From IMG/VR virus record IMGVR_UViG_3300009165_000006: a stretch of DNA of 25,101 nt; one strand, 5' to 3'. The stretch is from a virus. The notes beneath the pieces are model-generated. The model had not been told where the DNA came from. It was given only the letters and a program-made list of their open reading frames with translations, and searched no databases. How positions within the stretch are numbered: position 1 is the stretch's first letter; each line of letters begins with the position of its first letter. This document shows, in pieces, positions 2,861-22,198 of this stretch. The position numbers were made by a program, and so were the translations under genes.

Positions 2861-3079
2861 TTACAAGCTCGAAGCCACTGATCGACCTAGCTCGGTCGGA
2901 ACCAAGATGATTAGAGACCCACCTAAACTTTTAGTCTTCGACACGTACCCGAGCTCGAGCAGCTTAAGAGCCGGCTTGTATTCCGGGACACAACTCCAAG
3001 GAAACCCCACACCCGTAATCTTGATGATCTCTTGGAGAGTTTTAACCTGGGTGGGGGTTAGCTTTTTCGTCTTGGGCAT
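2861..3079 (-). CDS. Family B small wHTH DNA-binding protein (LexA N-terminal-like), copy 1
   Basis: 72-aa ORF. Promoter TTGAGG-17-TAATAA-6-ATG at 3080-3113. Paralog of 305..544. Confidence 0.65.
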   Translation of the reverse strand: MPKTKKLTPTQVKTLQEIIKITGVGFPWSCVPEYKPALKLLELGYVSKTKSLGGSLIILVPTELGRSVASSL

Positions 3080-3109
3080 GCCTCTTATTACGCGCGAGCT
3101 TCGAGAACC

Positions 3110-3340
3110 TCAACCGGTTTCGTCGACCCAATTCCGTCCCGTTGCCGGGTTCCAAGCCTTGAATCCCGCCCTGGTGATCCCTAGGGCGAGGGCCTTTGAG
3201 TCCGCATCGTCTCCACGTAGAGTGGGAACGTACCCATCAAGCATGCGAGCTGCTAGCTCAGCAAACGACTTGAATGCCGTCACCTTGGCAGTCAGTTCGT
3301 TGAGCGAGGCAAGCATGTCAGCCGTATGTTTGAGGGTCAT
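3110..3340 (-). CDS. Family A hypothetical protein (76 aa), copy 2
   Basis: Paralog of 2611..2844. Promoter TTGAGT-17-TAATAC-6-ATG at 3341-3375. The tandem P-A-P-B-A unit at 2580-3375 is about 85% identical at the nucleotide level between repeats. Confidence 0.65.
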   Translation of the reverse strand: MTLKHTADMLASLNELTAKVTAFKSFAELAARMLDGYVPTLRGDDADSKALALGITRAGFKAWNPATGRNWVDETG

Positions 3341-3349
3341 GCCCTAGTA

Positions 3350-3559
3350 TTACGTGCCAGTCTTGCCAAACTCAACCAAACTTCGACGGCGTTCCTGCCT
3401 TTCTACGAGAATCCTATCCCCACACGTGGCAGCCCGGATGCTGTCACATGTGAGTTTTGTATGGAACTCACATGTGACAGCATCCGGTGGAACGTCTTTC
3501 ACCAAACCGAGCCTTACGGCTCTCAAAAAGTGTGCGACTTTCCCCTCAACTGATGACAT
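3350..3559 (-). CDS. hypothetical small protein (69 aa), or a small RNA; contains a 23-bp perfect palindrome
   Basis: Well-formed promoter TTGAGA(3588-3593 rc)-17-TACTAC(3565-3570 rc)-5-ATG. The ORF reads through the 3434-3487 hairpin and into the next gene's promoter, so protein-coding status is uncertain. Confidence 0.3.
   Translation of the reverse strand: MSSVEGKVAHFLRAVRLGLVKDVPPDAVTCEFHTKLTCDSIRAATCGDRILVERQERRRSLVEFGKTGT
3434..3487. repeat. perfect 23-bp inverted repeat (CCGGATGCTGTCACATGTGAGTT / AACTCACATGTGACAGCATCCGG) with an 8-nt loop
   Basis: Read directly: arms 3434-3456 and 3465-3487 are exact reverse complements. Confidence 0.9.
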
Positions 3560-3606
3560 GAGTCGTAGTATGTACCAAAAAGCGGACTCTCAACCAGAAA
3601 GTATGT

Positions 3607-3674
3607 AACTACACGTAGTTTTATGATTGGCTCATTACTATTGCTACGAACATGCTCTAAAACTACGTGTAGGC
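3607..3674. promoter_or_regulatory. conserved bipartite element, copy 1: AACTACACGTAG-16-TTACTATTG-21-ACGTGTAGGC (outer arms form a 14-bp inverted repeat)
   Basis: Same three blocks with identical 16/21-nt spacing recur at 8473-8540. Spacer sequences differ. Confidence 0.6.
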
Positions 3675-3976
3675 AATCAAGAGGCTCGAGCTTATAAGCT
3701 CGAACAAGGGACTAGCTTACATGTAGTTACTCAATACGCTGGTAACTATAGGAATGAGCCAAGAGCTTACCTACCTGTAAGCAATCTACTAACTATCCAG
3801 GCCACCCCCATTGTTCTGGTCATAAACGAGAGTGACCCTGGCTCCCCACCACCCTCGAGTCTTGATGCACTGCTCGTAACCTTACCGGCAACCTATCTTA
3901 CAGGTCAGCGTCAAACTCAAAATCCGGAACTGGACCAAGGCATTCCCCCCTACGGCGCATTAACCCTCCCCCAGGG

Positions 3977-4591
3977 TTAGCACAACGACCTCATTATCCG
4001 CTGGTACCGAGTAAGTACGGGAGCCCTTTCTTGTGGGGAATTCCTTAGAAGCCAATCTTGGCAATCAGTAAGTTGAGCTCTTCTCTCTTTAGCACTTTTA
4101 GCACTAGAAGTGGCTGCTCGAGCAGCCCAAGTCGTAGCAGCCCTAGCAGCAGCCTGAGCATTAGCCAAAGTAGTCATAACAGAAGCAGCCCAAGCAGCAG
4201 CCTGAGCAACCCGAGCAGCTCTATGAGCAGTCCTCCAAGCAGGCATTGAAGGAGCATCCTCAGACAGAACCTCCCAAGCAGCCTTAGCAGCCCTTTCTAG
4301 TTCTTCCTTTGAGACCGCTTCCCCGTTAACAAATCGGTCACACAGATCTAAAGCTCGAAGGGTATCAGGATGGAACCAACCTGTCTTCGTACAGCCTCGG
4401 CGTGCAACCCGAGCCACTACATAGACCATTCCCCTCCGCCCAAGAATCTCTTCATGTAGGAGTACCCCTACTTTAGCATTAGACGGAATCGATGCTTCAA
4501 ACAACTCCATCACTCCCATCGGGAGTAGTTCGTCTGGGATAAGGTCGGAAGGCTCCCAACTCTCAAGGAGTTCTTTCGTAATGGTGATCAT
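3977..4591 (-). CDS. Family D hypothetical protein (204 aa, Ala-rich C-terminal half), copy 1
   Basis: Paralog of 7826..8380 (shared blocks LIP.E.LPM...FEA.I.S..K.G.LL.EEILG.RGMVYV.AR.ARR.CT.TGW.HP.TLRALDLCDR, ...KERRAQL.DC..WL). Promoter TTGACT(4624-4629 rc)-17-GATAAT(4601-4606 rc)-9-ATG. Confidence 0.65.
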   Translation of the reverse strand: MITITKELLESWEPSDLIPDELLPMGVMELFEASIPSNAKVGVLLHEEILGRRGMVYVVARVARRGCTKTGWFHPDTLRALDLCDRFVNGEAVSKEELERAAKAAWEVLSEDAPSMPAWRTAHRAARVAQAAAWAASVMTTLANAQAAARAATTWAARAATSSAKSAKERRAQLTDCQDWLLRNSPQERAPVLTRYQRIMRSLC

Positions 4592-4647
4592 ACCACCCTC
4601 ATTATCCGTGGATCACCTCCAAAAGTCAACTGGTGTACTTTTGCCCC

Positions 4648-4923
4648 ATGAAAGAGAAGCCTGAACCCGAAAGGAAAGGCTGGGTACCGGTCACTGAATG
4701 CCATCCCCCAGTCGATGAACCACTACTCGTCTACCATCGTGTAGATCGATACCCGAGCGGCGAAGTGCATAGCTGGGACGCACTCCTCGTTGCAAAGTAC
4801 GATCGCACGTCTCATTGGTTAGTGGAATCGGATGCTGGCTATTGGGTACGCTTTTCCAAGTCCGAGCTAGTGACCCATTGGATGTATTTGCCCGAGCCAC
4901 CCGGCTCTTTGAGGTCCCCATAA
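4648..4923 (+). CDS. hypothetical protein (about 91 aa, Trp-rich)
   Basis: ORF 4633..4923, with the start more plausibly at ATG 4648 (MKEKPEP). TACTTT-6-ATG geometry upstream. Divergent from family D gene. Opposite-strand ORFs look less protein-like. Weak. Confidence 0.35.
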   Translation: MKEKPEPERKGWVPVTECHPPVDEPLLVYHRVDRYPSGEVHSWDALLVAKYDRTSHWLVESDAGYWVRFSKSELVTHWMYLPEPPGSLRSP

Positions 4924-5078
4924 AAGAAGACCGAGCCAATCCTCCGCACACAAGGAGAACTGGCCCGGCCTAGCCCGTACGTGGAAGATGATTGGAGAAC
5001 CACGCTCAGGCCAAACGGGAAAGTACTCCACCCCCACCCCGGTAGTCAACCTTTTTACAGCAGGCCGAAGTGGTTCGA

Positions 5079-5447
5079 TTACCCCTGCGAGTCTCCCACC
5101 TCTTTGATGGCTCTCTCCATCTGAGTGGCCAACTGACGTAGTTGGTTGGTCGTAAACTTCCGAGCCAACGCCTGGAGCCTCTCTAAGGCTACTACGTATA
5201 AGATATGAGCCATCTCTTGAGCATCCTGGGCCTCATAGAGCGCCACCATCTCAGGGGTGGGTGGGAACCATATGTGCCCGTCAGCCCAACGAGTTTTCTT
5301 CGGGATTCGTACCCCACTGGTAAGAATGACCATTGTCTTGGTTACCCGCTCAACAGTGACCTCACGCCAACTACGACCCACTTGGTGGTACCACTTCGAC
5401 CCAGCGACCGTATTTCGAACGGCTTCCTCAAGAATAGCGTTGCTCAT
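5079..5447 (-). CDS. Family C hypothetical protein (122 aa), copy 1
   Basis: Paralog of 6029..6400 and 7424..7780 (shared ...E.A..NTV.GSKWY..v...W..v.VE.VTKTT........I.K...........W.PPT). No canonical family promoter. Three ACTCAA (= TTGAGT) repeats lie upstream. Confidence 0.6.
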   Translation of the reverse strand: MSNAILEEAVRNTVAGSKWYHQVGRSWREVTVERVTKTMVILTSGVRIPKKTRWADGHIWFPPTPEMVALYEAQDAQEMAHILYVVALERLQALARKFTTNQLRQLATQMERAIKEVGDSQG

Positions 5448-5578
5448 ACCTACTACACACCACCTGTGCCCTAGTCCTGAGAGACTTTTGAGGCAGACTC
5501 AACCTCTGACTCAAAAGTCCCCCTACTCAAAAACCTCTTGCATGACGCCTTGACTACAGTACCACTAAGGCGCCCCCT

Positions 5579-6091
5579 ATGACGAGATTTCTCGTACAAT
5601 TCGAGACCGAGGACGATCAAGCCCTCATCAAGGCCCTCGTCTTCCTTCAGGAGAACGGCTTCAACCCAACCCTTCAGGCAGTCGCGGATGAACCAAAGCC
5701 CGTAGCACGTATCCCGGTAGTGGCACGCCTCGACCGGGATACGGCGTGGATGAAACTCCTCTCCGCCTTGAAGCCGAACCCCAAGAAGGTCCTCCAGTTC
5801 ATCAAGACCGGCCCCCCAAATGGTCTCTCCGCTAGGATGATCGCTGACCAGTTCAAGCAGAAACCAAACTGGTTCACCGGAGTCCTCAACGGCGGAATCC
5901 AACGTAACGTCAAGTCCGCCGGATTCCAGCTCGAAGACGTCGTTGTCATTACCCAGTATCGCGGAATGATCACCTACGCCCCCGGCCCAGAACTCAAACG
6001 CAGGGAGCTCAAAAGTCCCCTACCACCTTCACCGGCCTATGCCCCTATTGACGGTGACGAGGTCAATGAGGCTCTCCATCTGGGTGACTAG
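5579..6091 (+). CDS. hypothetical protein (170 aa), possible wHTH-like segment (VLQFIKTGPPNGLSARMIADQF)
   Basis: Protein-like composition. Its 3' end overlaps the convergent family C gene by 63 nt (antisense overlap). Confidence 0.5.
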   Translation: MTRFLVQFETEDDQALIKALVFLQENGFNPTLQAVADEPKPVARIPVVARLDRDTAWMKLLSALKPNPKKVLQFIKTGPPNGLSARMIADQFKQKPNWFTGVLNGGIQRNVKSAGFQLEDVVVITQYRGMITYAPGPELKRRELKSPLPPSPAYAPIDGDEVNEALHLGD

Positions 6092-6400
6092 TTGCCGGAG
6101 CTGGTCAGCTGTAGTCCACTGAGCAATAGCTCGAAGCTTCTCTAGAGCTGCCAGGTAAGAGGTCATCGCGTCCTTCTTCGCCATGACCTCCAGAACTAGG
6201 TCCTGAGTGGGTGGAAACCAGATCCGCCCAGCATGATCACGACAGGTTGCCTTCGAGATGCAAGTGCCCCCCAGAAGCACAACCGTAGTCTTGGTTACCT
6301 TCTTGACCTCAACCGCATGCCACTTACCATGGATGCACTGATACCACTTTGAACCAGGTACCGTATTTCGAATGGCCTCTTCGCGATCAACTGCGTTCAT
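6029..6400 (-). CDS. Family C hypothetical protein (123 aa), copy 2
   Basis: The track ORF 6029..6439 was trimmed to ATG 6398-6400. This ATG sits 5 nt after the conserved TAATAG (6406-6411 rc) with TTATGG -35 (6430-6435 rc) and aligns with the paralog N-termini (MNAVDREEAIRNTVPGSKWYQ). Confidence 0.65.
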   Translation of the reverse strand: MNAVDREEAIRNTVPGSKWYQCIHGKWHAVEVKKVTKTTVVLLGGTCISKATCRDHAGRIWFPPTQDLVLEVMAKKDAMTSYLAALEKLRAIAQWTTADQLRQLVTQMESLIDLVTVNRGIGR

Positions 6401-6583
6401 GTTCTCTATTACGCTTGCCCCCTGCGAACCCATAACCAAAATCTATAGCGTTCGCCTGTGGTACCCCCAAGAAACTAGCTTTGGCTGGGGTACTGGGAAG
6501 TCGGCCAACATCAAGTACCCCATCCGGAACCCAGTGCTTGGCTCCCCATTCTATGAAACTTAAGCTGGGTTTGGAGTCAACTT

Positions 6584-7378
6584 CTAGATCTCCATTTGCT
6601 CGGCCAAGTACTCGTAGTCGTCAAGCTTACCATTGGCACGCGAGGCCCTATTCGAGGCTTCGGACGCCCCGTTGGGTGCACCAAGCTTGGCGCGAGCTGT
6701 GACGCAATCCTCGTCGCGATGCCACTGACCACGGAGCTGCCACCGGGATTGCTCTCGTAGAGTCAACTTCCTCCAACCCTGTTCTCTAGCCCTCTGGTAG
6801 AGCTGCCTTGAAGCAAGGCGATTCGCCTCACTCAGAGTGAGTCCAATCGCCGCAGTCCCGAAGTCGCGTGCCAAATCCTCGACATCACACCACGGTAGGA
6901 AACGGTAGTAGCGCGTCCAGTGCCATGTCAGGATATCTGCGGCCCGTACCGGGTCAGACAATCGATGTGAGTAGCGAACAAAAGACTGCGACCATAGCAA
7001 TTCCTTGCCGGCGAACCGGTCACTCACCATGACCGTACAGGGAACTGTCTCATCAGCCGATACCTCAAGGCTAATTGGCCTCAAATCGCGAGCTTGCTCT
7101 TCTGGGAGCAGGCGAAATAGCATCCGAATCCGCCGAGTCCCGTCGAACTTACCAGTCTTGTTTGAGATCTCCAAAACCTGGCCCCATCGGCCTCGACCAG
7201 AAAAGAAATCGTCAACGACAACGACGTCAATGTCGCCCGTCGACACGCCTAGTAGCCCGGAGACTACGCCACGCATCGTACGTGACAGCCACACCACATT
7301 TTCTGTGGCCTCAAGGCTGAATTGGAAGGATGAAATCTCAACAGAACCCCGAACGATCAATTCAATTGGCTTTTTCAT
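6584..7378 (-). CDS. hypothetical protein (264 aa) with a G-x-S-x-G-D-I-D-VVVVDD acidic motif; possible nucleotide/metal-binding fold, unassigned
   Basis: Long clean ORF co-transcribed 45 nt downstream of family C copy 3 (no promoter motif between). Motif GLLGVSTGDIDVVVVDDFFSGRGRWG does not fit any family I can name with confidence. Confidence 0.6.
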   Translation of the reverse strand: MKKPIELIVRGSVEISSFQFSLEATENVVWLSRTMRGVVSGLLGVSTGDIDVVVVDDFFSGRGRWGQVLEISNKTGKFDGTRRIRMLFRLLPEEQARDLRPISLEVSADETVPCTVMVSDRFAGKELLWSQSFVRYSHRLSDPVRAADILTWHWTRYYRFLPWCDVEDLARDFGTAAIGLTLSEANRLASRQLYQRAREQGWRKLTLREQSRWQLRGQWHRDEDCVTARAKLGAPNGASEASNRASRANGKLDDYEYLAEQMEI

Positions 7379-7423
7379 GTCCCATACCCGAGGTCAATTT
7401 CTCGGGCCTCCTAGTACGAGCGG

Positions 7424-7780
7424 TCAGTGAATCTCCGACAGGTCAATGAGGCTCTCTAGCTGAGTGGCTAGCTTGAGAAGTTGAGCAGGCGTAGCACGCT
7501 GAGCTGCCTCTCGAAGCTTCTCTACGGCCGCCTCGTAAGCAACCCTGGCGACCTCAAAGTCCTCGAACTGCTTGACGATGTTCTGAGTGGGTGGATACCA
7601 AGCCCAACCATCTTGGTCACGACAGTTCCTCTTCGAGATGCGAGTCCCCCCTTCGAGGTAGATCGTAGTCTTGGTTACCCTCTCGACCAAGCCCACTACC
7701 CACTTGCTATTCACGCACTGATACCACTTCGAACCAGGAACCGTGTTCAGGATGACAGCTTCTCGTTCGACTTTGCTCAT
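7424..7780 (-). CDS. Family C hypothetical protein (118 aa), copy 3
   Basis: Promoter TTGAGT(7811-7816 rc)-18-TAATAG(7787-7792 rc)-6-ATG. Paralog alignment as above. Confidence 0.7.
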   Translation of the reverse strand: MSKVEREAVILNTVPGSKWYQCVNSKWVVGLVERVTKTTIYLEGGTRISKRNCRDQDGWAWYPPTQNIVKQFEDFEVARVAYEAAVEKLREAAQRATPAQLLKLATQLESLIDLSEIH

Positions 7781-7825
7781 GCCACCCTATTACGCATGGG
7801 CGCCTAGAGAACTCAACCAAATTCC

Positions 7826-8380
7826 TTAGGCCCGTCTCGTAAGCCACTCCCGACAATCGGCGAGTTGGGCTTTTCTCTCTTCCTTCTCACTAGGGACAGC
7901 ACTAACAGCCGTTCGAATAACTGTTAGTGCCCTAGTCCGGGCACTAGTATCAACGGCAACAGCCCAAGCAACTCGAGCAGCCCCATGAGCAGCCTCCCAA
8001 GCATCCATTGAAGGGGCATCATCAGCCATTGAAGGAGCCTCAGAAACAGCCAAAGCAGCTGCCCCTAGCGCTTTAGCTGAGATCTCTTCCCCCTCAGCGT
8101 AACGGTCGCATAGGTCGAGAGCTCGAAGGGTAGCAGGATGGTCCCAACCTGTCTCTGTGCAGGCTCGGCGCGCAGCCCTAGCCGCCACGTAGACCATCCC
8201 CCTTCCCCCAAGAATCTCTTCACGTAGGAGAAGCCCTATCTTGTTCTCAGAGGAAATCGGGGCTTCGAACACCTTCAGCGCCTCCATTGGAAGTTGTTCA
8301 CTCGGGATGAGGTTGGAAACCTCCCACCCCTCAAGAAGTCCACTCGTAAGAACGACCCCATTTCGTTCGGTTTGGCTCAT
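7826..8380 (-). CDS. Family D hypothetical protein (184 aa), copy 2
   Basis: Promoter TTGAGA(8409-8414 rc)-17-TAATAG(8386-8391 rc)-6-ATG. Paralog of 3977..4591. Confidence 0.7.
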   Translation of the reverse strand: MSQTERNGVVLTSGLLEGWEVSNLIPSEQLPMEALKVFEAPISSENKIGLLLREEILGGRGMVYVAARAARRACTETGWDHPATLRALDLCDRYAEGEEISAKALGAAALAVSEAPSMADDAPSMDAWEAAHGAARVAWAVAVDTSARTRALTVIRTAVSAVPSEKEERKAQLADCREWLTRRA

Positions 8381-8472
8381 GCCCTCTATTACGCACGAGC
8401 ACCCGAACTCTCAACTTCTTTCTACTCTATCTATGTAAGTAGAGGACTACCCCATGAGGGTACGGGTTCCTA

Positions 8473-8540
8473 CGGTTCTTACAACTACACGTAGGCAAGA
8501 ACCACGCTCGTTACTATTGATTCGAGCGCGCTCGTCACTT
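8473..8540. promoter_or_regulatory. conserved bipartite element, copy 2: AACTACACGTAG-16-TTACTATTG-21-ACGTGTAGGC
   Basis: Identical block order and spacing to 3607-3674. Internal GAGCGCGCTC palindrome in this copy. Confidence 0.6.
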
Positions 8541-8739
8541 ACGTGTAGGCTACCTTATCTTTCGTACCTACCATAGCTAATCATACCCTCGCCTACATAG
8601 GTATAGACGTATGACAAACACTACCTCATATCTTATAGGACTACCCTACCTACACTTGCGCGAAGCGCCTGTTCTGGTGTGGTTATCCGACACCTACTAC
8701 TTTCACAGTAAATCACGATGCGCCGAAGGCGCATCGTCG

Positions 8740-8940
8740 GATGTGTGTAGGAAACCTCACAACACAACTGGGGGTTGTGTAAAACACACAGTTCTGCAGG
8801 GAAACTGTGTGCTGTTTTCAAATGTGTAGTAAAAACACTGCACAAGTCAATTGCACGAAAGTGCCGTGATTTGTATAGTGTTTTGCCGTTTGTCGCGTTT
8901 ATTTGGAATTTTAGATCAGGTGGGTTTGATATTCGGGAGG
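8740..8940. other. AT-rich, A-tract and short-hairpin-rich region (candidate DNA unwinding element) in the divergent control region
   Basis: Local AT enrichment with TGTGT/ACACA repeats and small inverted repeats (e.g. ACACACAGTT..AACTGTGTG, GATGCGCC gaa GGCGCATC at about 8715-8735). Sits between the minus- and plus-strand gene blocks. Confidence 0.4.
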
Positions 8941-8944
8941 TCTG

Positions 8945-9140
8945 GTGATATACAAAACGGTCGGTCGGTGCTATACGAGCCCGTAGGCCGAGTGATATAC
9001 AAAACCGAACCAAGAACCAAAGTGATATACAAGCCCACGGGCAGGCTTCGCAGGCCAATGGGCTTGTATATCACTGACCCAAGAGCCGGGATAATTTGTA
9101 TATCACTGACCCAAGAGCCGGAAAGGAAAGTGATATACAA
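8945..9140. repeat. iteron array: 6 copies of GTGATATACAA (direct at 8945, 8992, 9022, 9130; inverted at 9065, 9096), including a 26-bp direct repeat TTGTATATCACTGACCCAAGAGCCGG x2 (9065-9090, 9096-9121)
   Basis: Read directly. Spacings of about 30-31 bp (three helical turns). Typical of plasmid/phage origin iterons, partition sites or operator arrays. Confidence 0.75.
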
Positions 9141-9175
9141 GTTCAAAGCTGCGGTGTATGACGGCTTATTCGAGC

Positions 9176-9526
9176 ATGGCCGTCAAGAACTACACGAAAA
9201 CTATACTCATTCGGGCAAGGGATGGGAAAGCACGGTCATGGGCGCTTCGCGCCAGTGAGAGTGGGAAGCGCCTATCGACTTGGATACGGGAGTCACTCAA
9301 TGAGAGGGCTGGGTACAAGCCTGATGGGTTGTCATCTGAGTCCATCTCACCTGAGCCTGAGGTGGGACCTGAACCAGTTATCGAGCCTGAAGTAGGGGAG
9401 TCAACTTCAGAGTCTGAGCGACCAGTTGACGAGGGCACTCAAGGTTCACCTGTTGGGGTTGGAGCCTCTCTCATTACGGATGACGAGATGCGGGTGATAC
9501 TTGATGACGTGTTGGGTAGGGGTTGA
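9176..9526 (+). CDS. ribbon-helix-helix (CopG/Arc/ParG-like) DNA-binding protein with acidic/Ser-Pro-Glu-rich disordered C-terminal tail
   Basis: N-terminus KTILIRARDGKARSWALRASESGKRLSTWIRESL fits the beta-strand/helix/helix RHH pattern. Start chosen at the second ATG (MAVKNY); ORF track starts at 9158. Immediately follows the iterons. Confidence 0.55.
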   Translation: MAVKNYTKTILIRARDGKARSWALRASESGKRLSTWIRESLNERAGYKPDGLSSESISPEPEVGPEPVIEPEVGESTSESERPVDEGTQGSPVGVGASLITDDEMRVILDDVLGRG

Positions 9527-15830: not shown

Positions 15831-16577
15831 ATGAAAAGTGACAACCTTGATGTTCGGATGCGACGGCTTGAGTGCTATCATGCGCTGGAAGTCTTACCTG
15901 GTGCCTATCCCATTGTTCGTGTTGATGGGCGGAGCTTCACGAAGCTGACCCGAGGAATGGAGCATCCATTCGATGTGAAGTTTCACGAGTGCATGGTGGC
16001 GACGGCGAAGGCTTTGTTGATTGAGTTAGGTGGACTCTATGCATTCACGGAGAGTGACGAAATTTCGGTTCTACTGCCTCGTGATACGGATCTATTCGGT
16101 CGCGAAGTGGAGAAGCTTGTGTCGGTCTCTGCGGGGATAGCGTCGTCGACCTTTTCGTTGGAGCTGGGCAAGCCTGGTCACTTTGACGGTCGGGTCTGGG
16201 TGGGGATCTTGGAGAACGACGTGGTCGATTACTTCCGATGGAGGCAGTCGGATGCCTTTCGCTGTTGTCTGAACTCCTGGTGTTACTGGACGTTGAGAAA
16301 GGCTGGGAAGAACGCCAAGCAGGCGACGGAGGTCCTTGAAGGTCGGAGTTTCTCGGCCAAGAACGAACTACTCTTTCAGCATGGGATCAATTTCAACAAG
16401 CTCGCTACCTGGCAAAAGCATGGTGTCGGTCTCTATTGGGAGGACTTCGAGAGGACTGGGTTCAACCCCAAGACCAAGGCACCCACGACGTGCACTCGTC
16501 GGAAGGTTTTGGTGAACCGGGATCTACCACGGGGTTTGGAGTACGTTAACCTCGTGCTACGGGTAGGTGGGTTATGA
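15831..16577 (+). CDS. Thg1-like protein (tRNA-His guanylyltransferase family; 3'-5' nucleotidyltransferase)
   Basis: Hallmark blocks PIVRVDGRSFTKLT (RxDGxxF), YAFTESDEISVLL (SDE carboxylates), FDGRVW, CYWTLRKAGKNAKQATEVLEGRSFSAKNELLFQHGINFNKL. Stand-alone transcription unit. Confidence 0.75.
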   Translation: MKSDNLDVRMRRLECYHALEVLPGAYPIVRVDGRSFTKLTRGMEHPFDVKFHECMVATAKALLIELGGLYAFTESDEISVLLPRDTDLFGREVEKLVSVSAGIASSTFSLELGKPGHFDGRVWVGILENDVVDYFRWRQSDAFRCCLNSWCYWTLRKAGKNAKQATEVLEGRSFSAKNELLFQHGINFNKLATWQKHGVGLYWEDFERTGFNPKTKAPTTCTRRKVLVNRDLPRGLEYVNLVLRVGGL

Positions 16578-16849: not shown

Positions 16850-17128
16850 CTAGATCGTCTCAAGTGCTCGATTGAGCGCAAAGCGAATCACTCGTAGATC
16901 TCGCTCCGTTAGCTTCATGGTGAATTCTTTTCCCTCGTTGCTATCCATGTTAACAACAACGTCAAGGATGTTGGGCAACTGAGGTCCAAGTAGGGCGGTT
17001 ACCTTGTCCCGTTGGATCTCTATGGCGGAACGGACTAGGTCAGCATTCGCCACCGTCGAGAACTCTGGATCATACACATCGGATATTGGTCCTGGCATGC
17101 TCAGTACCGTATCTGAGAACGTGTTCAA
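16850..17128 (-). CDS. hypothetical protein (about 82-92 aa)
   Basis: The track start is a TTG at 17128. An ATG start at 17098 (MPGPISD) is equally possible. Confidence 0.45.
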   Translation of the reverse strand: MNTFSDTVLSMPGPISDVYDPEFSTVANADLVRSAIEIQRDKVTALLGPQLPNILDVVVNMDSNEGKEFTMKLTERDLRVIRFALNRALETI

Positions 17129-17224
17129 ACTTACGTTAGAGTAGAACTCTCAGTTTGAAGCTATGCGAACCAGATTTTGTGATCTTACCTTCACAGTAAG
17201 CCTCCGGCTAGTACGGTAATAGCG

Positions 17225-20715: not shown

Positions 20716-22143
20716 ATGAAGAAGAGTCGGTTCTTCATGCTGCACCCCGAGTGTAACCCAGGGAAACTAGCCTCCCTTGAAGCCCTCCATGTCGAATACG
20801 TCTCTTACGTTCGGATCTGCGTCCAGACGATGCTTGAAGCTCGTAGGCTGACTTTACCTCGTTCCAAGAAGCAAGAGTTCTTTCCACGAGCTGAGAAGCT
20901 CACATCTCAGATTGAGAAGAACGCCCGAGACCACGCTATTCAGATCGTGAGTACTTGAGCTAAATCAGTCTACGTCCGGAAGCTCAAGACCCACATTCGA
21001 TTGGCTTTCAAGAGGGGTGAAATCACCGAGGACTTCCGAAAGCAACTCTACACAGTAGAGAAGTATCTGGTTCATGAGCCAAGGGACACTGTCTCCCAAG
21101 AAGCTATCGATCTGTATTGGACTTGGCTCTCAGACCCAGAAGTAGTGGGAAATTTCCCAAGCGTGTCCAATCGGATTCCAATGAGGATGTCGGAAAACAC
21201 TTGCTCATTGGAAGATCCAGAAGAAACTGTCCACGCTGATTTTTGGCTCAAGATCTCAACCTTGGTTTCGCGTAAGCTTGCCTGGTTACCATTGGTTGGT
21301 AACCCTTATGTGAGGAAAGCTTCCGATGTTTCCAAGGGAATCCATGCGAGGAAAGACCGAAAGGGCCGTTGGCGTTTTGAAGCGGTTGATATCAAGGAGT
21401 GGCTCGTTCTGGAAGCTGAGCCAGAGTTACCTCGAGTAGGAGTCGACGTTGGGCTGAACGTAGTAGCGGCTACTTCGAGTGGACACACGTTTGGGGCTGA
21501 CCTTCAACCAAAGTTCAACCAGCTCTACAACAAGGTCAGGGCGGTTCGCTCGAACCGCCAGAGACAGAATCTTAAGGACAACTCACCCAGGCTTGACCGC
21601 CTAGAGTCCAAGCTTTCTGGGCTTACTAAGAGTATCACAGGACGAGTATCAAATGAGCTTCTTCTAGCTTATCCAGAATCGGTCTTCGTTCTTGAAGACC
21701 TTGATCTCTCTGGATGTCGAGGTCAGAAACGTTTTTGTTATCGGGCTTTAGCTCACGCTCTTGAGTCAAAAGCCCCGACGGAAGTTGTCAATCCGGCCTA
21801 TTCGTCTCAGACATGCCCGTCATGCGGGCATGTCTCCAGACTTAACAGGTCTGGAACCAGTTTCGTCTGCCGCCAGTGCGGCAGACGTTCACATGCTGAT
21901 GTGGTGGGAGGGATCAATCTGCTCAGACGTTCTGAGAGCAAACAGATTGGTCTCGATGATCATCCGTCGGAAGTGAAGGAAGTGCTTGTGAGGCTATACT
22001 GGAATCGAGGTAATCTCGGTCGGGAGTGTCCACAGGACTTCTTGAATAAGTTCGCGCCATTATCGTATGGCCGCAGGCTTACTACCAGAGCATCGCCCCG
22101 CAAGGGGCAGGCTGGCACAGCCTCTAATCAGGTAGCTGCTTGA
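20716..22143 (+). pseudogene. tnpB: TnpB / IS605-IS1341 OrfB-like RNA-guided RuvC nuclease homolog; reading frame interrupted by a single in-frame TGA (20956-20958) and carrying a roughly 70-aa C-terminal extension
   Basis: N-terminal TnpB-like start (MKKSRFFMLHPE...) and ORF 21001..22143 are in the same frame, separated only by the TGA. Downstream RuvC-I GVDVGLN, RuvC-II VFVLEDLDL, zinc ribbon CPSCGH...CRQCG and RuvC-III HADVVGGINLL are all intact. No TnpA gene nearby. Confidence 0.75.
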
Positions 22144-22166
22144 GCTTAGTAAGTTTGAGCAACTTC

Positions 22167-22198
22167 TTGAGTACGGTCTTATGCATACCTCATAATGT
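22167..22198 (+). promoter_or_regulatory. leaderless promoter TTGAGT-17-TCATAA-3-ATG for gene 22199
   Basis: Read directly. Begins only 24 nt after the tnpB stop. Confidence 0.5.

Follow-up and report, generated by a model that had tools for sequence, protein, structure and literature searches.

The early gene arm of a large phage carries two 68-bp sequences with the same blocks at the same spacing, which raises the question of what this element is and what it does beside early promoters. The window is a 25,101-nucleotide stretch of DNA from an uncultured phage with a genome of roughly 100 kb. A search of the window with the pattern AACTACACGTAG-N16-TTACTATTG-N21-ACGTGTAGGC returns exactly two matches, at 3607-3674 and 8483-8550, and dinucleotide-preserving shuffles of the window return none (0/100). 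The conserved blocks, fixed spacing and variable spacers of the original prediction are thereby borne out, as is its placing of the first copy; the second, given as 8473-8540, was 10 nt off. The outer blocks are inverted repeats of each other, as had been described, and the two copies have unrelated flanks, in agreement with the view that the pair is not a remnant of a longer duplication. The description as a two-copy bipartite element does not hold: each 68-bp element is instead a single repeat unit of a 172-bp tandem array with four palindromic boxes, and the genome has three such arrays.

Architecture of the arrays

The features of the two arrays in the window are listed below. Array strand is relative to the downstream promoter, and boxes and centre motifs are given without a strand.

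3609-3780, minus strand: array 1, comprising units c (3609-3672), b (3663-3726) and a (3717-3780), with four shared boxes and a 54-bp period
3609-3618: box 4 of array 1, promoter-proximal; CTACACGTAG on plus, CTACGTGTAG on minus
3663-3672: box 3 of array 1; CTACGTGTAG on plus
3717-3726: box 2 of array 1; TTACATGTAG on plus
3771-3780: box 1 of array 1, promoter-distal; CTACCTGTAA on plus
3635-3643: centre motif of unit c; TTACTATTG on plus, CAATAGTAA on minus, flanked by the inner inverted repeat GTTCGT/ATGAGC
3557-3593, minus strand: predicted leaderless promoter TTGAGA-N17-TACTAC-N5-ATG, 15 nt downstream of box 4 of array 1
8429-8602, minus strand: array 2, in a divergent control region, with intervals of 54, 54 and about 56 bp
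8485-8548: unit d of array 2, well preserved, with one decayed unit on each side
8593-8602: box 1 of array 2; inward half alone left, ACCTATGTAG on minus
8539-8548: box 2 of array 2; TTACGTGTAG on plus
8485-8494: box 3 of array 2; CTACACGTAG on plus
8429-8438: box 4 of array 2; inward half alone left, TTACATAGAT on minus
8511-8519: centre motif of unit d; TTACTATTG on plus, flanked by CGCTCG/CGAGCG
8378-8414, minus strand: predicted leaderless promoter TTGAGA-N17-TAATAG-N5-ATG of a 184-aa family D gene, the first leftward early one; separated by 14 nt from array 2's decayed box 4

The boxes are 10 bp long and near-palindromic, with the consensus CTACATGTAG, and successive boxes lie 54 bp apart. 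Boxes in the window start at 3609, 3663, 3717 and 3771 and at 8485 and 8539, and the degenerate end boxes of array 2 occupy 8593-8602 and 8429-8438. Four box pairs stand at exactly 54 bp in the window, against none in 200 Markov simulations. An array thus consists of three head-to-tail, quasi-palindromic 64-bp units whose neighbours share boxes, and every aligned unit of the 54-bp period (13/13) is exactly 64 nt long without indels. Box positions 2-9 (TACATGTA) show 75-92% conservation across 36 boxes and are the most conserved feature of the array. Most arrays retain the inward half alone of the promoter-distal box, and the same is true of the promoter-proximal box in locus-2 arrays. The array as a whole forms a long imperfect palindrome with inverted-repeat ends.

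Each 44-bp spacer between boxes has a central TATAG-type motif. The TTACTATTG that had been taken for a conserved central block is the remaining half of a palindromic centre (TTACTATAGTAA-like), which occurs in both orientations inside one array; in array 3, two units out of three have it inverted. This third array lies about 6 kb left of the window. No intergenic gaps seen in the early gene arm are larger than the three that contain these arrays.

Conservation and position at early promoters

A search for the element in related genomes, proposed with the original prediction, finds the arrays in five related uncultured phages, with a period of 54 bp, or 56 bp in one relative. All nine arrays from the six phage genomes have four boxes and three units. 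Array 1 has an ortholog in identical register at L015:5407-5578, and orthologs of array 2 lie at L015:674-737 (identical), L037:1929-2102, L021:488-661 and L044:9213-9398. The divergent region with array 2 is 97% identical to that of L015, compared with 88% for the flanking block including genes. In the more distant L044, the boxes are perfect (three CTACATGTAG and one CTACACGTAG) and the spacers have diverged. Boxes, period and box number are what relatives keep, whereas the hairpin potential of the spacers is not kept, with fold z scores of -5 to -9 in six arrays and near -1 in three.

The arrays are sparse. The examined part of this genome, roughly 31 kb, contains three, and a further 60 kb of related sequence has none. 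A strict pattern scan of 185,579 GTDB species genomes gave no matches and no host copies, and a degenerate scan gave four matches, at chance level and not palindromic.

Seven of the nine arrays precede a sigma-70-like promoter, its -35 lying 14-15 or 23-24 nt downstream of the last box; promoters here are consensus motifs rather than mapped transcription starts. Five of these arrays have distances to the TTGANN -35 of 15, 14, 14, 15 and 15 nt, and the other two have 23 and 24 nt, so that the two gap classes differ by about one helical turn; all three arrays of this genome belong to the shorter class. Six of these seven promoters are leaderless (TTGAGN-N17-TAATAG-N5-ATG, or more loosely TAnTAn-N5-ATG after the -35). 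The gap sequences are unrelated between loci. The original prediction had placed the two copies 13 and 58 nt from a -35, which is right for the first (-35 at 3593-3588), whereas the second is actually 68 nt away (8414-8409). Its link to family D genes is coincidental, since in relatives the gene that follows the locus-2 array is of family C or unrelated.

The arrays as candidate protein-binding sites

The favoured, though tentative, explanation is that each array is an operator- or enhancer-like DNA element for a putative dimeric protein that regulates early promoters, which agrees with the composite protein-binding site first proposed. A dimeric, sequence-specific DNA-binding protein of phage or host origin would fill the boxes cooperatively, and the bound protein would organise about 170 bp of upstream DNA. 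This organised DNA would switch the adjoining early promoter on or off, as multi-operator and enhancer-like arrays do. From the observed anatomy, conservation and position relative to promoter motifs, we infer protein binding and an action on transcription, which could run in either direction. The arrays have the conserved short sites, fixed spacing, free spacer sequence and placement in control regions that are expected of operators or iterons. With the centre motif present in both orientations within one array, a symmetric duplex site is a better fit than a sequence-specific RNA loop. Folded as single-stranded DNA, the units reach only -6 to -14 kcal/mol with unpaired interiors of about 30 nt, making cruciform extrusion unlikely as the main state.

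Known multi-operator or phased-site arrays of phage and plasmid regulators include the phi29 p4 sites, the phage 186 CI flanking sites, the conserved inverted repeats of phiC31, the KorB operators of RK2 and Lrp-type phased boxes. Like the present arrays, these combine conserved short palindromes with regular spacing in promoter or divergent control regions, and their spacers are fixed in length and free in sequence. The present arrays differ in their unusually long centre-to-centre spacing of 54-56 bp, in having a palindromic centre of its own in every spacer, and in always having four candidate binding boxes with half-site ends.

Several observations count against protein docking. Only two of the nine leaderless early promoters in the window have an array, and seven do not; conversely, L015 keeps array 1 although the adjoining promoter is absent. 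The occurrence of both 54-bp and 56-bp periods argues against a strict helical-phase constraint, and end boxes with only inward halves are more natural for a hairpin or inverted-repeat-bounded unit than for dimers on whole boxes. The small early proteins, labelled wHTH and RHH in the original prediction, gave no Pfam and no PHROGs matches that would bear these labels out, and no binding protein was identified; the AlphaFold model of an RHH-like 122-aa neighbour is of low confidence (pLDDT 59).

In large uncultured phages the early regions are made up almost wholly of ORFans, and the arrays provide a conserved, phased cis-element at three control points. The array also offers an experimental handle, as a 172-bp DNA bait for a phage or host regulator, a view of how leaderless early promoters are switched, and a metagenome marker for this phage group.

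Alternative readings of the arrays

A somewhat doubtful alternative to a docking site for protein is that each unit acts, as RNA or single-stranded DNA, as a stem-loop of about 54-64 nt with the base ATGTAG/CTACAT, so that an array would form either three hairpins side by side or a single long one. Such a structure could insulate or terminate transcription, signal RNA processing or stability, or be bound by a protein just before the next early promoter, a role likened to that of the promoter-early stem-loop (PeSL) cassettes of T4-type phages. The RNA folds of units c and d have energies of -27 to -31 kcal/mol (z -3.4 to -5.4), and whole-array folds beat shuffles in six of nine arrays (z -5 to -9). 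Unit-specific complementarity reaches past the boxes, and positions 11-14 and 51-54 beside them swap TTTT/AAAA for GCAA/TTGC with complementarity kept. End boxes reduced to their inward halves are what three self-contained hairpins require. Arrays 1 and 3 also lie downstream of genes on the transcribed strand.

The details of pairing are less favourable to a structured RNA or long-range stem of the kind envisaged in the original prediction. In the unit alignment, 73.8% of cells are paired and sliding the register gives 44% at most, but the observed pairing measures are reached in 18-44 of 500 shuffles; G-U pairs number 20 and A-C pairs 13. The covariation proposed as a check is present only as a weak term (-0.43 kcal/mol), and linker columns 15-21 pair at chance level. 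The sense-over-antisense fold advantage is that of ordinary coding windows and does not go beyond base composition. Some relatives have kept the boxes but not the interior complementarity, fold z scores being about -1 in the L044 arrays and -1.5 to -2.4 in the L021 array. The loop motif is inverted in array 3, as noted above, and Rfam covariance models gave no hits at E<=1 in the window and nothing better than chance-level hits at array 3.

An intrinsic-terminator role in particular fits poorly. An intrinsic terminator combines a GC-rich hairpin with a U-tract, and the unit tails read UUACAUACUUUC, UUGUAAGAACC and UAUGAGGAGAC, without a U-tract, although this phage has canonical U-tract terminators elsewhere (e.g. 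4971-4928). A terminator scan lists no 64-bp unit; within the units it picks up just the small central hairpin of unit b (3684-3705), with a tail, CUCUUGAUUG, that passes the T-count criterion. A separate terminator-like hairpin precedes array 3. Array 2 has no same-strand gene upstream to terminate, being placed in the divergent region ahead of the first leftward promoter.

Cassettes of a stem-loop and an early promoter are known in phages from the PeSLs (Arbiol et al. 2010, PMC2839356; Comeau et al. 2014, PMC4122927), which number about 50 per genome, each with one short GC-rich (GGGG...CCCC) stem-loop that is a demonstrated terminator, often inside or overlapping the promoter (PMC2839356; PMC4122927). 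PeSLs and the arrays are both repeated composite intergenic motifs of plastic, ORFan-rich early regions in large phages, where gene cassettes are gained, lost and duplicated, and both couple a sigma-70-like early promoter to a palindromic or stem-loop sequence, as seen in seven of nine arrays. By contrast, the present arrays number just three in the 31 kb examined, consist of three 64-bp units with shared boxes and a strict 54-bp period, and lie about 15 nt upstream of the -35 without a terminator signature. PeSL-like abundance at ORFan boundaries and indels is not seen, with arrays at two of nine early promoters in the window and one indel abutting array 1.

It is unlikely that the arrays are recombinogenic or selfish palindromic repeats without a direct regulatory role, akin to REP/BIME elements, MITEs or IS200/IS605-derived PATEs. 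Such repeats would spread or persist in intergenic gaps and provide homology or targets for a nuclease or recombinase that shuffles early gene cassettes. The long imperfect palindromes with inverted-repeat ends are in keeping with this reading, as are the many paralogs and tandem duplications of the early arm and the TnpB-like genes of these phages. Gene contexts of the arrays also differ among relatives; in L035 an array precedes a 122-aa gene, and neither box nor unit was found in the matching region of the window genome. Furthermore, the window and L015 differ by a 180-bp indel that borders the end of array 1. The other rearrangements relative to these phages map to promoter repeats, however, and the nine repeated promoters can account for most of the observed shuffling. 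The constant unit number (three in 9/9 arrays) is not expected of slippage-prone or mobile repeats, copies are few, the array-to--35 spacing is conserved, and degenerate genome scans gave chance-level matches only. No target-site duplications or empty sites were found, and no Y1 transposase, RAYT or integrase was seen.

REPs are elements of 20-40 nt, present in hundreds of copies of alternating orientation in host chromosomes and linked to RAYT transposases. The arrays share with REP/BIME an extragenic location, the clustering of imperfectly palindromic units and a foot that contains GTAG, and differ in their confinement to phage early regions and their invariable three units; an assignment to REP/BIME was rejected on the absence of host-chromosome copies in the GTDB scans and of a Y1 transposase in the window. 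An IS200/IS605 end or PATE was likewise set aside, as the TnpB-like gene (21001-22143) lies 12 kb from the nearest array, its ends are boxless and no TnpA was found.

More improbable again are triple-hairpin DNA or RNA elements that are recognised jointly by structure and box sequence and belong to an undescribed phage system, such as a hairpin-dependent switch that acts on early promoters or on the non-coding transcripts apparently following arrays 1 and 3, or else attC-like recombination sites that move promoter-plus-ORFan cassettes within the early arm. If a hairpin or recombination reading were true, the arrays would represent a new type of structured mobile regulatory cassette. Integron attC core sites R''/R' read RYYYAAC/GTTRRRY; the unit ends are CTACATGTAG, not an attC core, and no integrase occurs among the large ORFs scanned.

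The least probable reading, that the arrays are replication-origin, centromere-like partition or packaging sites whose phased boxes are iterons for an initiator, a ParB/ParR-like protein or a small terminase, draws on the regular short-site arrays typical of origins and centromeres in large intergenic regions, on contig ends near arrays in two assemblies and on the position of array 2 in a divergent region at a GC-skew sign change, which is not independent evidence because it coincides with the gene-orientation switch; against it, the three arrays are dispersed and each adjoins a promoter motif, none was found to have a replication, partition or terminase gene beside it, and the divergent region has a separate and better iteron candidate in the GTGATATACAA copies within 32-bp repeats at 8930-9140, which are conserved in L044.

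Architecture of the arrays

The 68-bp pattern of the original prediction, which placed two copies at 3607-3674 and 8473-8540, has exactly two matches in the window and none in 100 dinucleotide-preserving shuffles of it. The first copy lies where it was placed; the second is at 8483-8550, 10 nt higher than stated. The sequences flanking the two copies do not align, so they share no longer duplication, and the view that the element is not a duplication remnant stands. The feature is real, non-random and conserved within a clade of uncultured phages, but its description was incomplete: copy 1 is the promoter-proximal unit of a three-unit array.

A relaxed search with the outer block recovers a 10-bp near-palindrome, YTACNNGTAR, at 3609, 3663, 3717 and 3771, and also at 8485 and 8539. 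Four box pairs in the window lie exactly 54 bp apart, compared with none in 200 first-order Markov simulations. This recurrence resolves array 1 into three 64-bp units that share boxes.

Arrays of this genome and their parts
3609-3780, array 1, four boxes forming units c (3609-3672), b (3663-3726) and a (3717-3780)
8429-8602, array 2 (locus 2)
8485-8548, unit d, the well-kept unit of array 2, with two decayed units on either side
8593-8602 and 8429-8438, outer boxes of array 2, the inward half alone retained
L040:16491-16662, array 3, three units, about 6 kb to the left of the window

Each unit is a quasi-palindrome laid out as box, N11, GTTCG, centre, CGAAC, N11, box, with CTACATGTAG as the palindrome of the box. 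The centre derives from a TTACTATAGTAA-like palindrome that has usually kept one half alone, reading CAATAGTAA or TTACTATTG according to the half kept; the centre motif is inverted in two of the three units of array 3. All 13 aligned units with the 54-bp period are exactly 64 nt long, with zero indels, and box positions 2-9 are conserved at 75-92% over 36 boxes.

Distribution among relatives and comparison with known elements

The window has no BLAST match among INPHARED phages, and searches for tRNA, tmRNA and Rfam families are negative; a 654-aa tail-fibre-like protein has distant viral relatives. Scans for the complete 68-bp pattern, exact and near-exact, in contigs of viruses, metagenomes and genomes are empty; this phage group is absent from the collections scanned. 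The route to relatives was instead through proteins of the early gene family D and their neighbours, and through a degenerate 19-base pattern. Family D homologs lead to metagenomic contigs: L010-L012 and L040 are 100% identical to the window, L015 and L020 belong to a 94.9-kb phage contig 88%-related to it, and L013, L021 and L044 are more distant relatives. The 19-base pattern adds L035 and L037, both metagenome contigs, as members; its remaining matches lack dyad symmetry and were set aside as chance.

The search of related genomes proposed in the original prediction finds arrays in relatives. L015 holds orthologs of both array 1 and array 2, and arrays also occur in L021 and L044, giving nine arrays in six genomes, every one with four boxes. 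Boxes repeat every 54 bp, with 56 bp instead in L044 and in the final interval of the locus-2 arrays. Conserved family-wide are the sequence of the boxes, their period, their number (four) and their placement with respect to the promoter. An HMM of the unit detects zero copies in window positions 9-25 kb and in L013, L017 and L020. Unit d is identical between the window and L015, which is unremarkable, given that identity is 97% across the entire intergenic region. A plus-strand ORF over array 1 (3627-3980) was rejected as coding, given 61% amino-acid identity to L015 against 83-95% nucleotide identity, and frame-breaking indels.

The nearest described concept is the PeSL of T4-type phages, a repeated cassette of stem-loop plus early promoter found in plastic regions (PMC2839356). 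The arrays are likewise coupled to early promoters in a comparable genomic setting, but they lack the abundance and terminator signature of PeSLs and are built from four phased boxes and three long units. The arrays are neither REP/BIME elements, IS200/IS605 ends, attC sites nor intrinsic terminators, and they belong to no Rfam family. They appear to resemble phased operator arrays in general; the boxes do not seem to fit the LexA, NtcA or IHF consensus sequences or protelomerase (56-bp telRL) sites.

Clusters of CTACATGTAG are also present in five unrelated IMG/VR viral contigs (GC 30 to 64%), at spacings unlike those of the arrays.

Clusters of CTACATGTAG in unrelated viral contigs
L046:3800-3960
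L047:1489-1600
L049:10920-11100
L048:2926-2990
L050:2908-2971

No protein common to these five contigs and this phage group is detectable, and the clusters are treated as putative independent uses of one palindrome. The extended site in L046, ACACTACATGTAGTGT, appears NrdR-box-like.

Early promoters and the nature of the arrays

Window genes from 1 to about 8400 lie on the minus strand. A leaderless promoter-plus-start motif, (GG)TTGAGN-N17/18-TAATAG-N5/6-ATG, is repeated nine times in the window and also occurs in L037, L035, L044 and L051, a contig extending left of the window in the same genome. Each small early gene seems to form its own leaderless transcription unit.

Leaderless promoter motifs in the window
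578-542, minus strand
928-892, minus strand
2614-2577, minus strand
3113-3077, minus strand
3375-3338, minus strand
3593-3557, minus strand
7816-7778, minus strand
8414-8378, minus strand
18338-18302, minus strand

The early promoters beside the arrays are predicted, being consensus motifs rather than mapped starts. Measured from the last box to the next TTGANN hexamer, the gap falls into two classes about one helical turn apart, and gap sequences are unrelated between loci.

Gap between last box and promoter hexamer
Array 1, 15 nt
Array 2, 14 nt
Array 3, 14 nt
L037 array, 15 nt
L021 array, 15 nt
L035 array, 23 nt
L044 array 1, 24 nt

Two arrays, L015 array 1 and L044 array 2, have no adjacent promoter; the 180-bp segment with the array-1 promoter (window 3428-3606) is absent from L015. 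The proposed proximity of both copies to a minus-strand -35 is exact for copy 1, which ends 13 nt from it (3593-3588), whereas for copy 2 the distance to its own (8414-8409) is 68 nt and not the stated 58 nt. Array 2 sits within the divergent control region (777 bp), ahead of the first leftward promoter. Array 3 has a separate terminator-like hairpin upstream, and the roughly 510 nt downstream of it are non-coding. Array 2 is followed by a family D gene in the window and L015, by a family C gene in L021 and by an unrelated gene in L037; the association with family D genes drawn earlier is therefore incidental.

The best-supported reading, a tentative one, is an array of protein-binding sites acting at the DNA level, multi-operator or enhancer-like, that controls the adjacent early promoters. 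A protein on these sites would alter the activity of the neighbouring promoter; we infer the binding, the effect on transcription and its direction alike. Small neighbouring proteins have no matches in Pfam or PHROGs, and no binder can be named from these. The 122-aa protein encoded divergently from array 2 (9158-9526) has an N-terminus that looks ribbon-helix-helix-like by eye only, and its structure model is unreliable (pLDDT 59). Profile comparison of this protein with PDB sequences gives only a marginal match, to an unrelated fimbrial subunit.

The main rival, which we consider unlikely, is an array of RNA or single-stranded DNA hairpins serving as insulator, processing signal or protein-bound hairpin. 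Folded as RNA, units c and d reach -27 to -31 kcal/mol (z -3.4 to -5.4), and whole arrays fold into a single long imperfect palindrome, with z of -5 to -9 in six arrays. The four positions adjoining each box alternate between TTTT/AAAA and GCAA/TTGC with complementarity kept, and the retention of inward halves alone in end boxes is exactly what three self-contained hairpins would need. Other results count against a hairpin. The covariation suggested as a check on the originally proposed stem or structured RNA is weak (term -0.43 kcal/mol), with 18-44 of 500 shuffles reaching the observed measures. Linker columns 15-21 pair at chance level, and G-U pairs exceed A-C pairs only slightly (20 vs 13). 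The sense-over-antisense stability gap is that of ordinary coding windows, and strand-specific folding was rejected as evidence because coding controls show an equal bias. The arrays of L044 (z about -1) and L021 (z -1.5 to -2.4) keep boxes and period with little or no fold signal, and a U-tract follows none of the units, while the phage has canonical terminators elsewhere. As single-stranded DNA the units reach only -6 to -14 kcal/mol and leave large interiors unpaired, a weak folding that makes cruciform extrusion improbable.

That the arrays are recombinogenic or selfish palindromic repeats is improbable, and that they are origin, partition or packaging sites is more improbable still. The arrays are best called phage early-region regulatory repeats, and nothing in the present data requires a new mechanism. 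Their strict architecture and the zero annotated proteins around them make them a useful experimental handle.

Neighbouring features and other genes

Several further features are present in this genome and its relatives.

Hairpin and repeats in the window
3434-3487, hairpin, perfect 23-bp inverted repeat with 8-nt loop
8930-9140, 32-bp repeats containing GTGATATACAA; counterparts L015:12-160 and L044:9700-9990
2584-2805 vs 3083-3304, early-arm repeat
339-468 vs 2871-3000, early-arm repeat
4267-4566 vs 8035-8334, early-arm repeat
5386-5429, 6339-6382 and 7719-7762, early-arm repeat

Besides the array-1 promoter, segment 3428-3606 contains a 69-aa ORF, inside which the hairpin lies. The hairpin arms carry a palindrome, TCACATGTGA, related to the box core ACATGT, and the segment may encode a small RNA rather than a protein. 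Upstream of array 1, 195 non-coding nt (3781-3976) separate it from the family D stop codon. The approximately 125 nt nearest the family D gene (3853-3976) are 95% identical to L015, a coding-level conservation, and the rest is poorly conserved. Frame-breaking indels occur in 3781-3976, Rfam gives no match for it, and it could be a structured 3' UTR or non-coding RNA.

Beside the first rightward gene, at least five copies of GTGATATACAA occur in both orientations. The motif is conserved as far as L044, a distant relative, and the contig of L015 breaks off within the set, a candidate operator or iteron set of the divergent control region that is separate from the arrays. This intergenic region also holds a 10-bp, GC-rich hairpin capped by a UUCG loop (8715-8737, ACGATGCGCC-TTCG-GGCGCATCGT), kept in position in L044, that may be the terminator of a short non-coding transcript. 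After array 3, about 510 nt without an ORF (L051:6209-6722) begin with CCACTTGACCGCCCTGARGGT twice in tandem, containing -35-like TTGACC hexamers, and are possibly a non-coding transcript.

The early arm is made up of families of paralogs and of recent tandem duplications, one of them a 499-bp repeat with a promoter plus a 76/77-aa gene, and among relatives entire promoter-gene cassettes have been gained or lost there.

Elsewhere, a TnpB-like gene (21001-22143, plus strand; also L013:17231-18475) has a Cas12f1-like TNB domain (E 1.8e-13) and a weak OrfB_IS605 match, with no adjoining TnpA. Positions 17094-17134 and 22149-22189 form a 41-nt imperfect inverted repeat, whose second arm lies just 3' of the gene's stop codon. 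The window has zero tRNA genes and carries a Thg1-like gene of the tRNA-His guanylyltransferase family (15831-16577, plus strand; Thg1 E 1e-26, Thg1C E 4e-15). L020 (contig Ga0654620_0000003) represents the phage of L015 and encodes a Ro60-like protein (3619-5205) with a vWA_Ro60 match and a weak TROVE match; genes for dCTP deaminase and peptide deformylase adjoin it. The early arms of L044 encode a Cas_VVA1548-domain protein and an Anti-Pycsar Apyc1-like protein (L044:6092-6709, L044:13235-13873).
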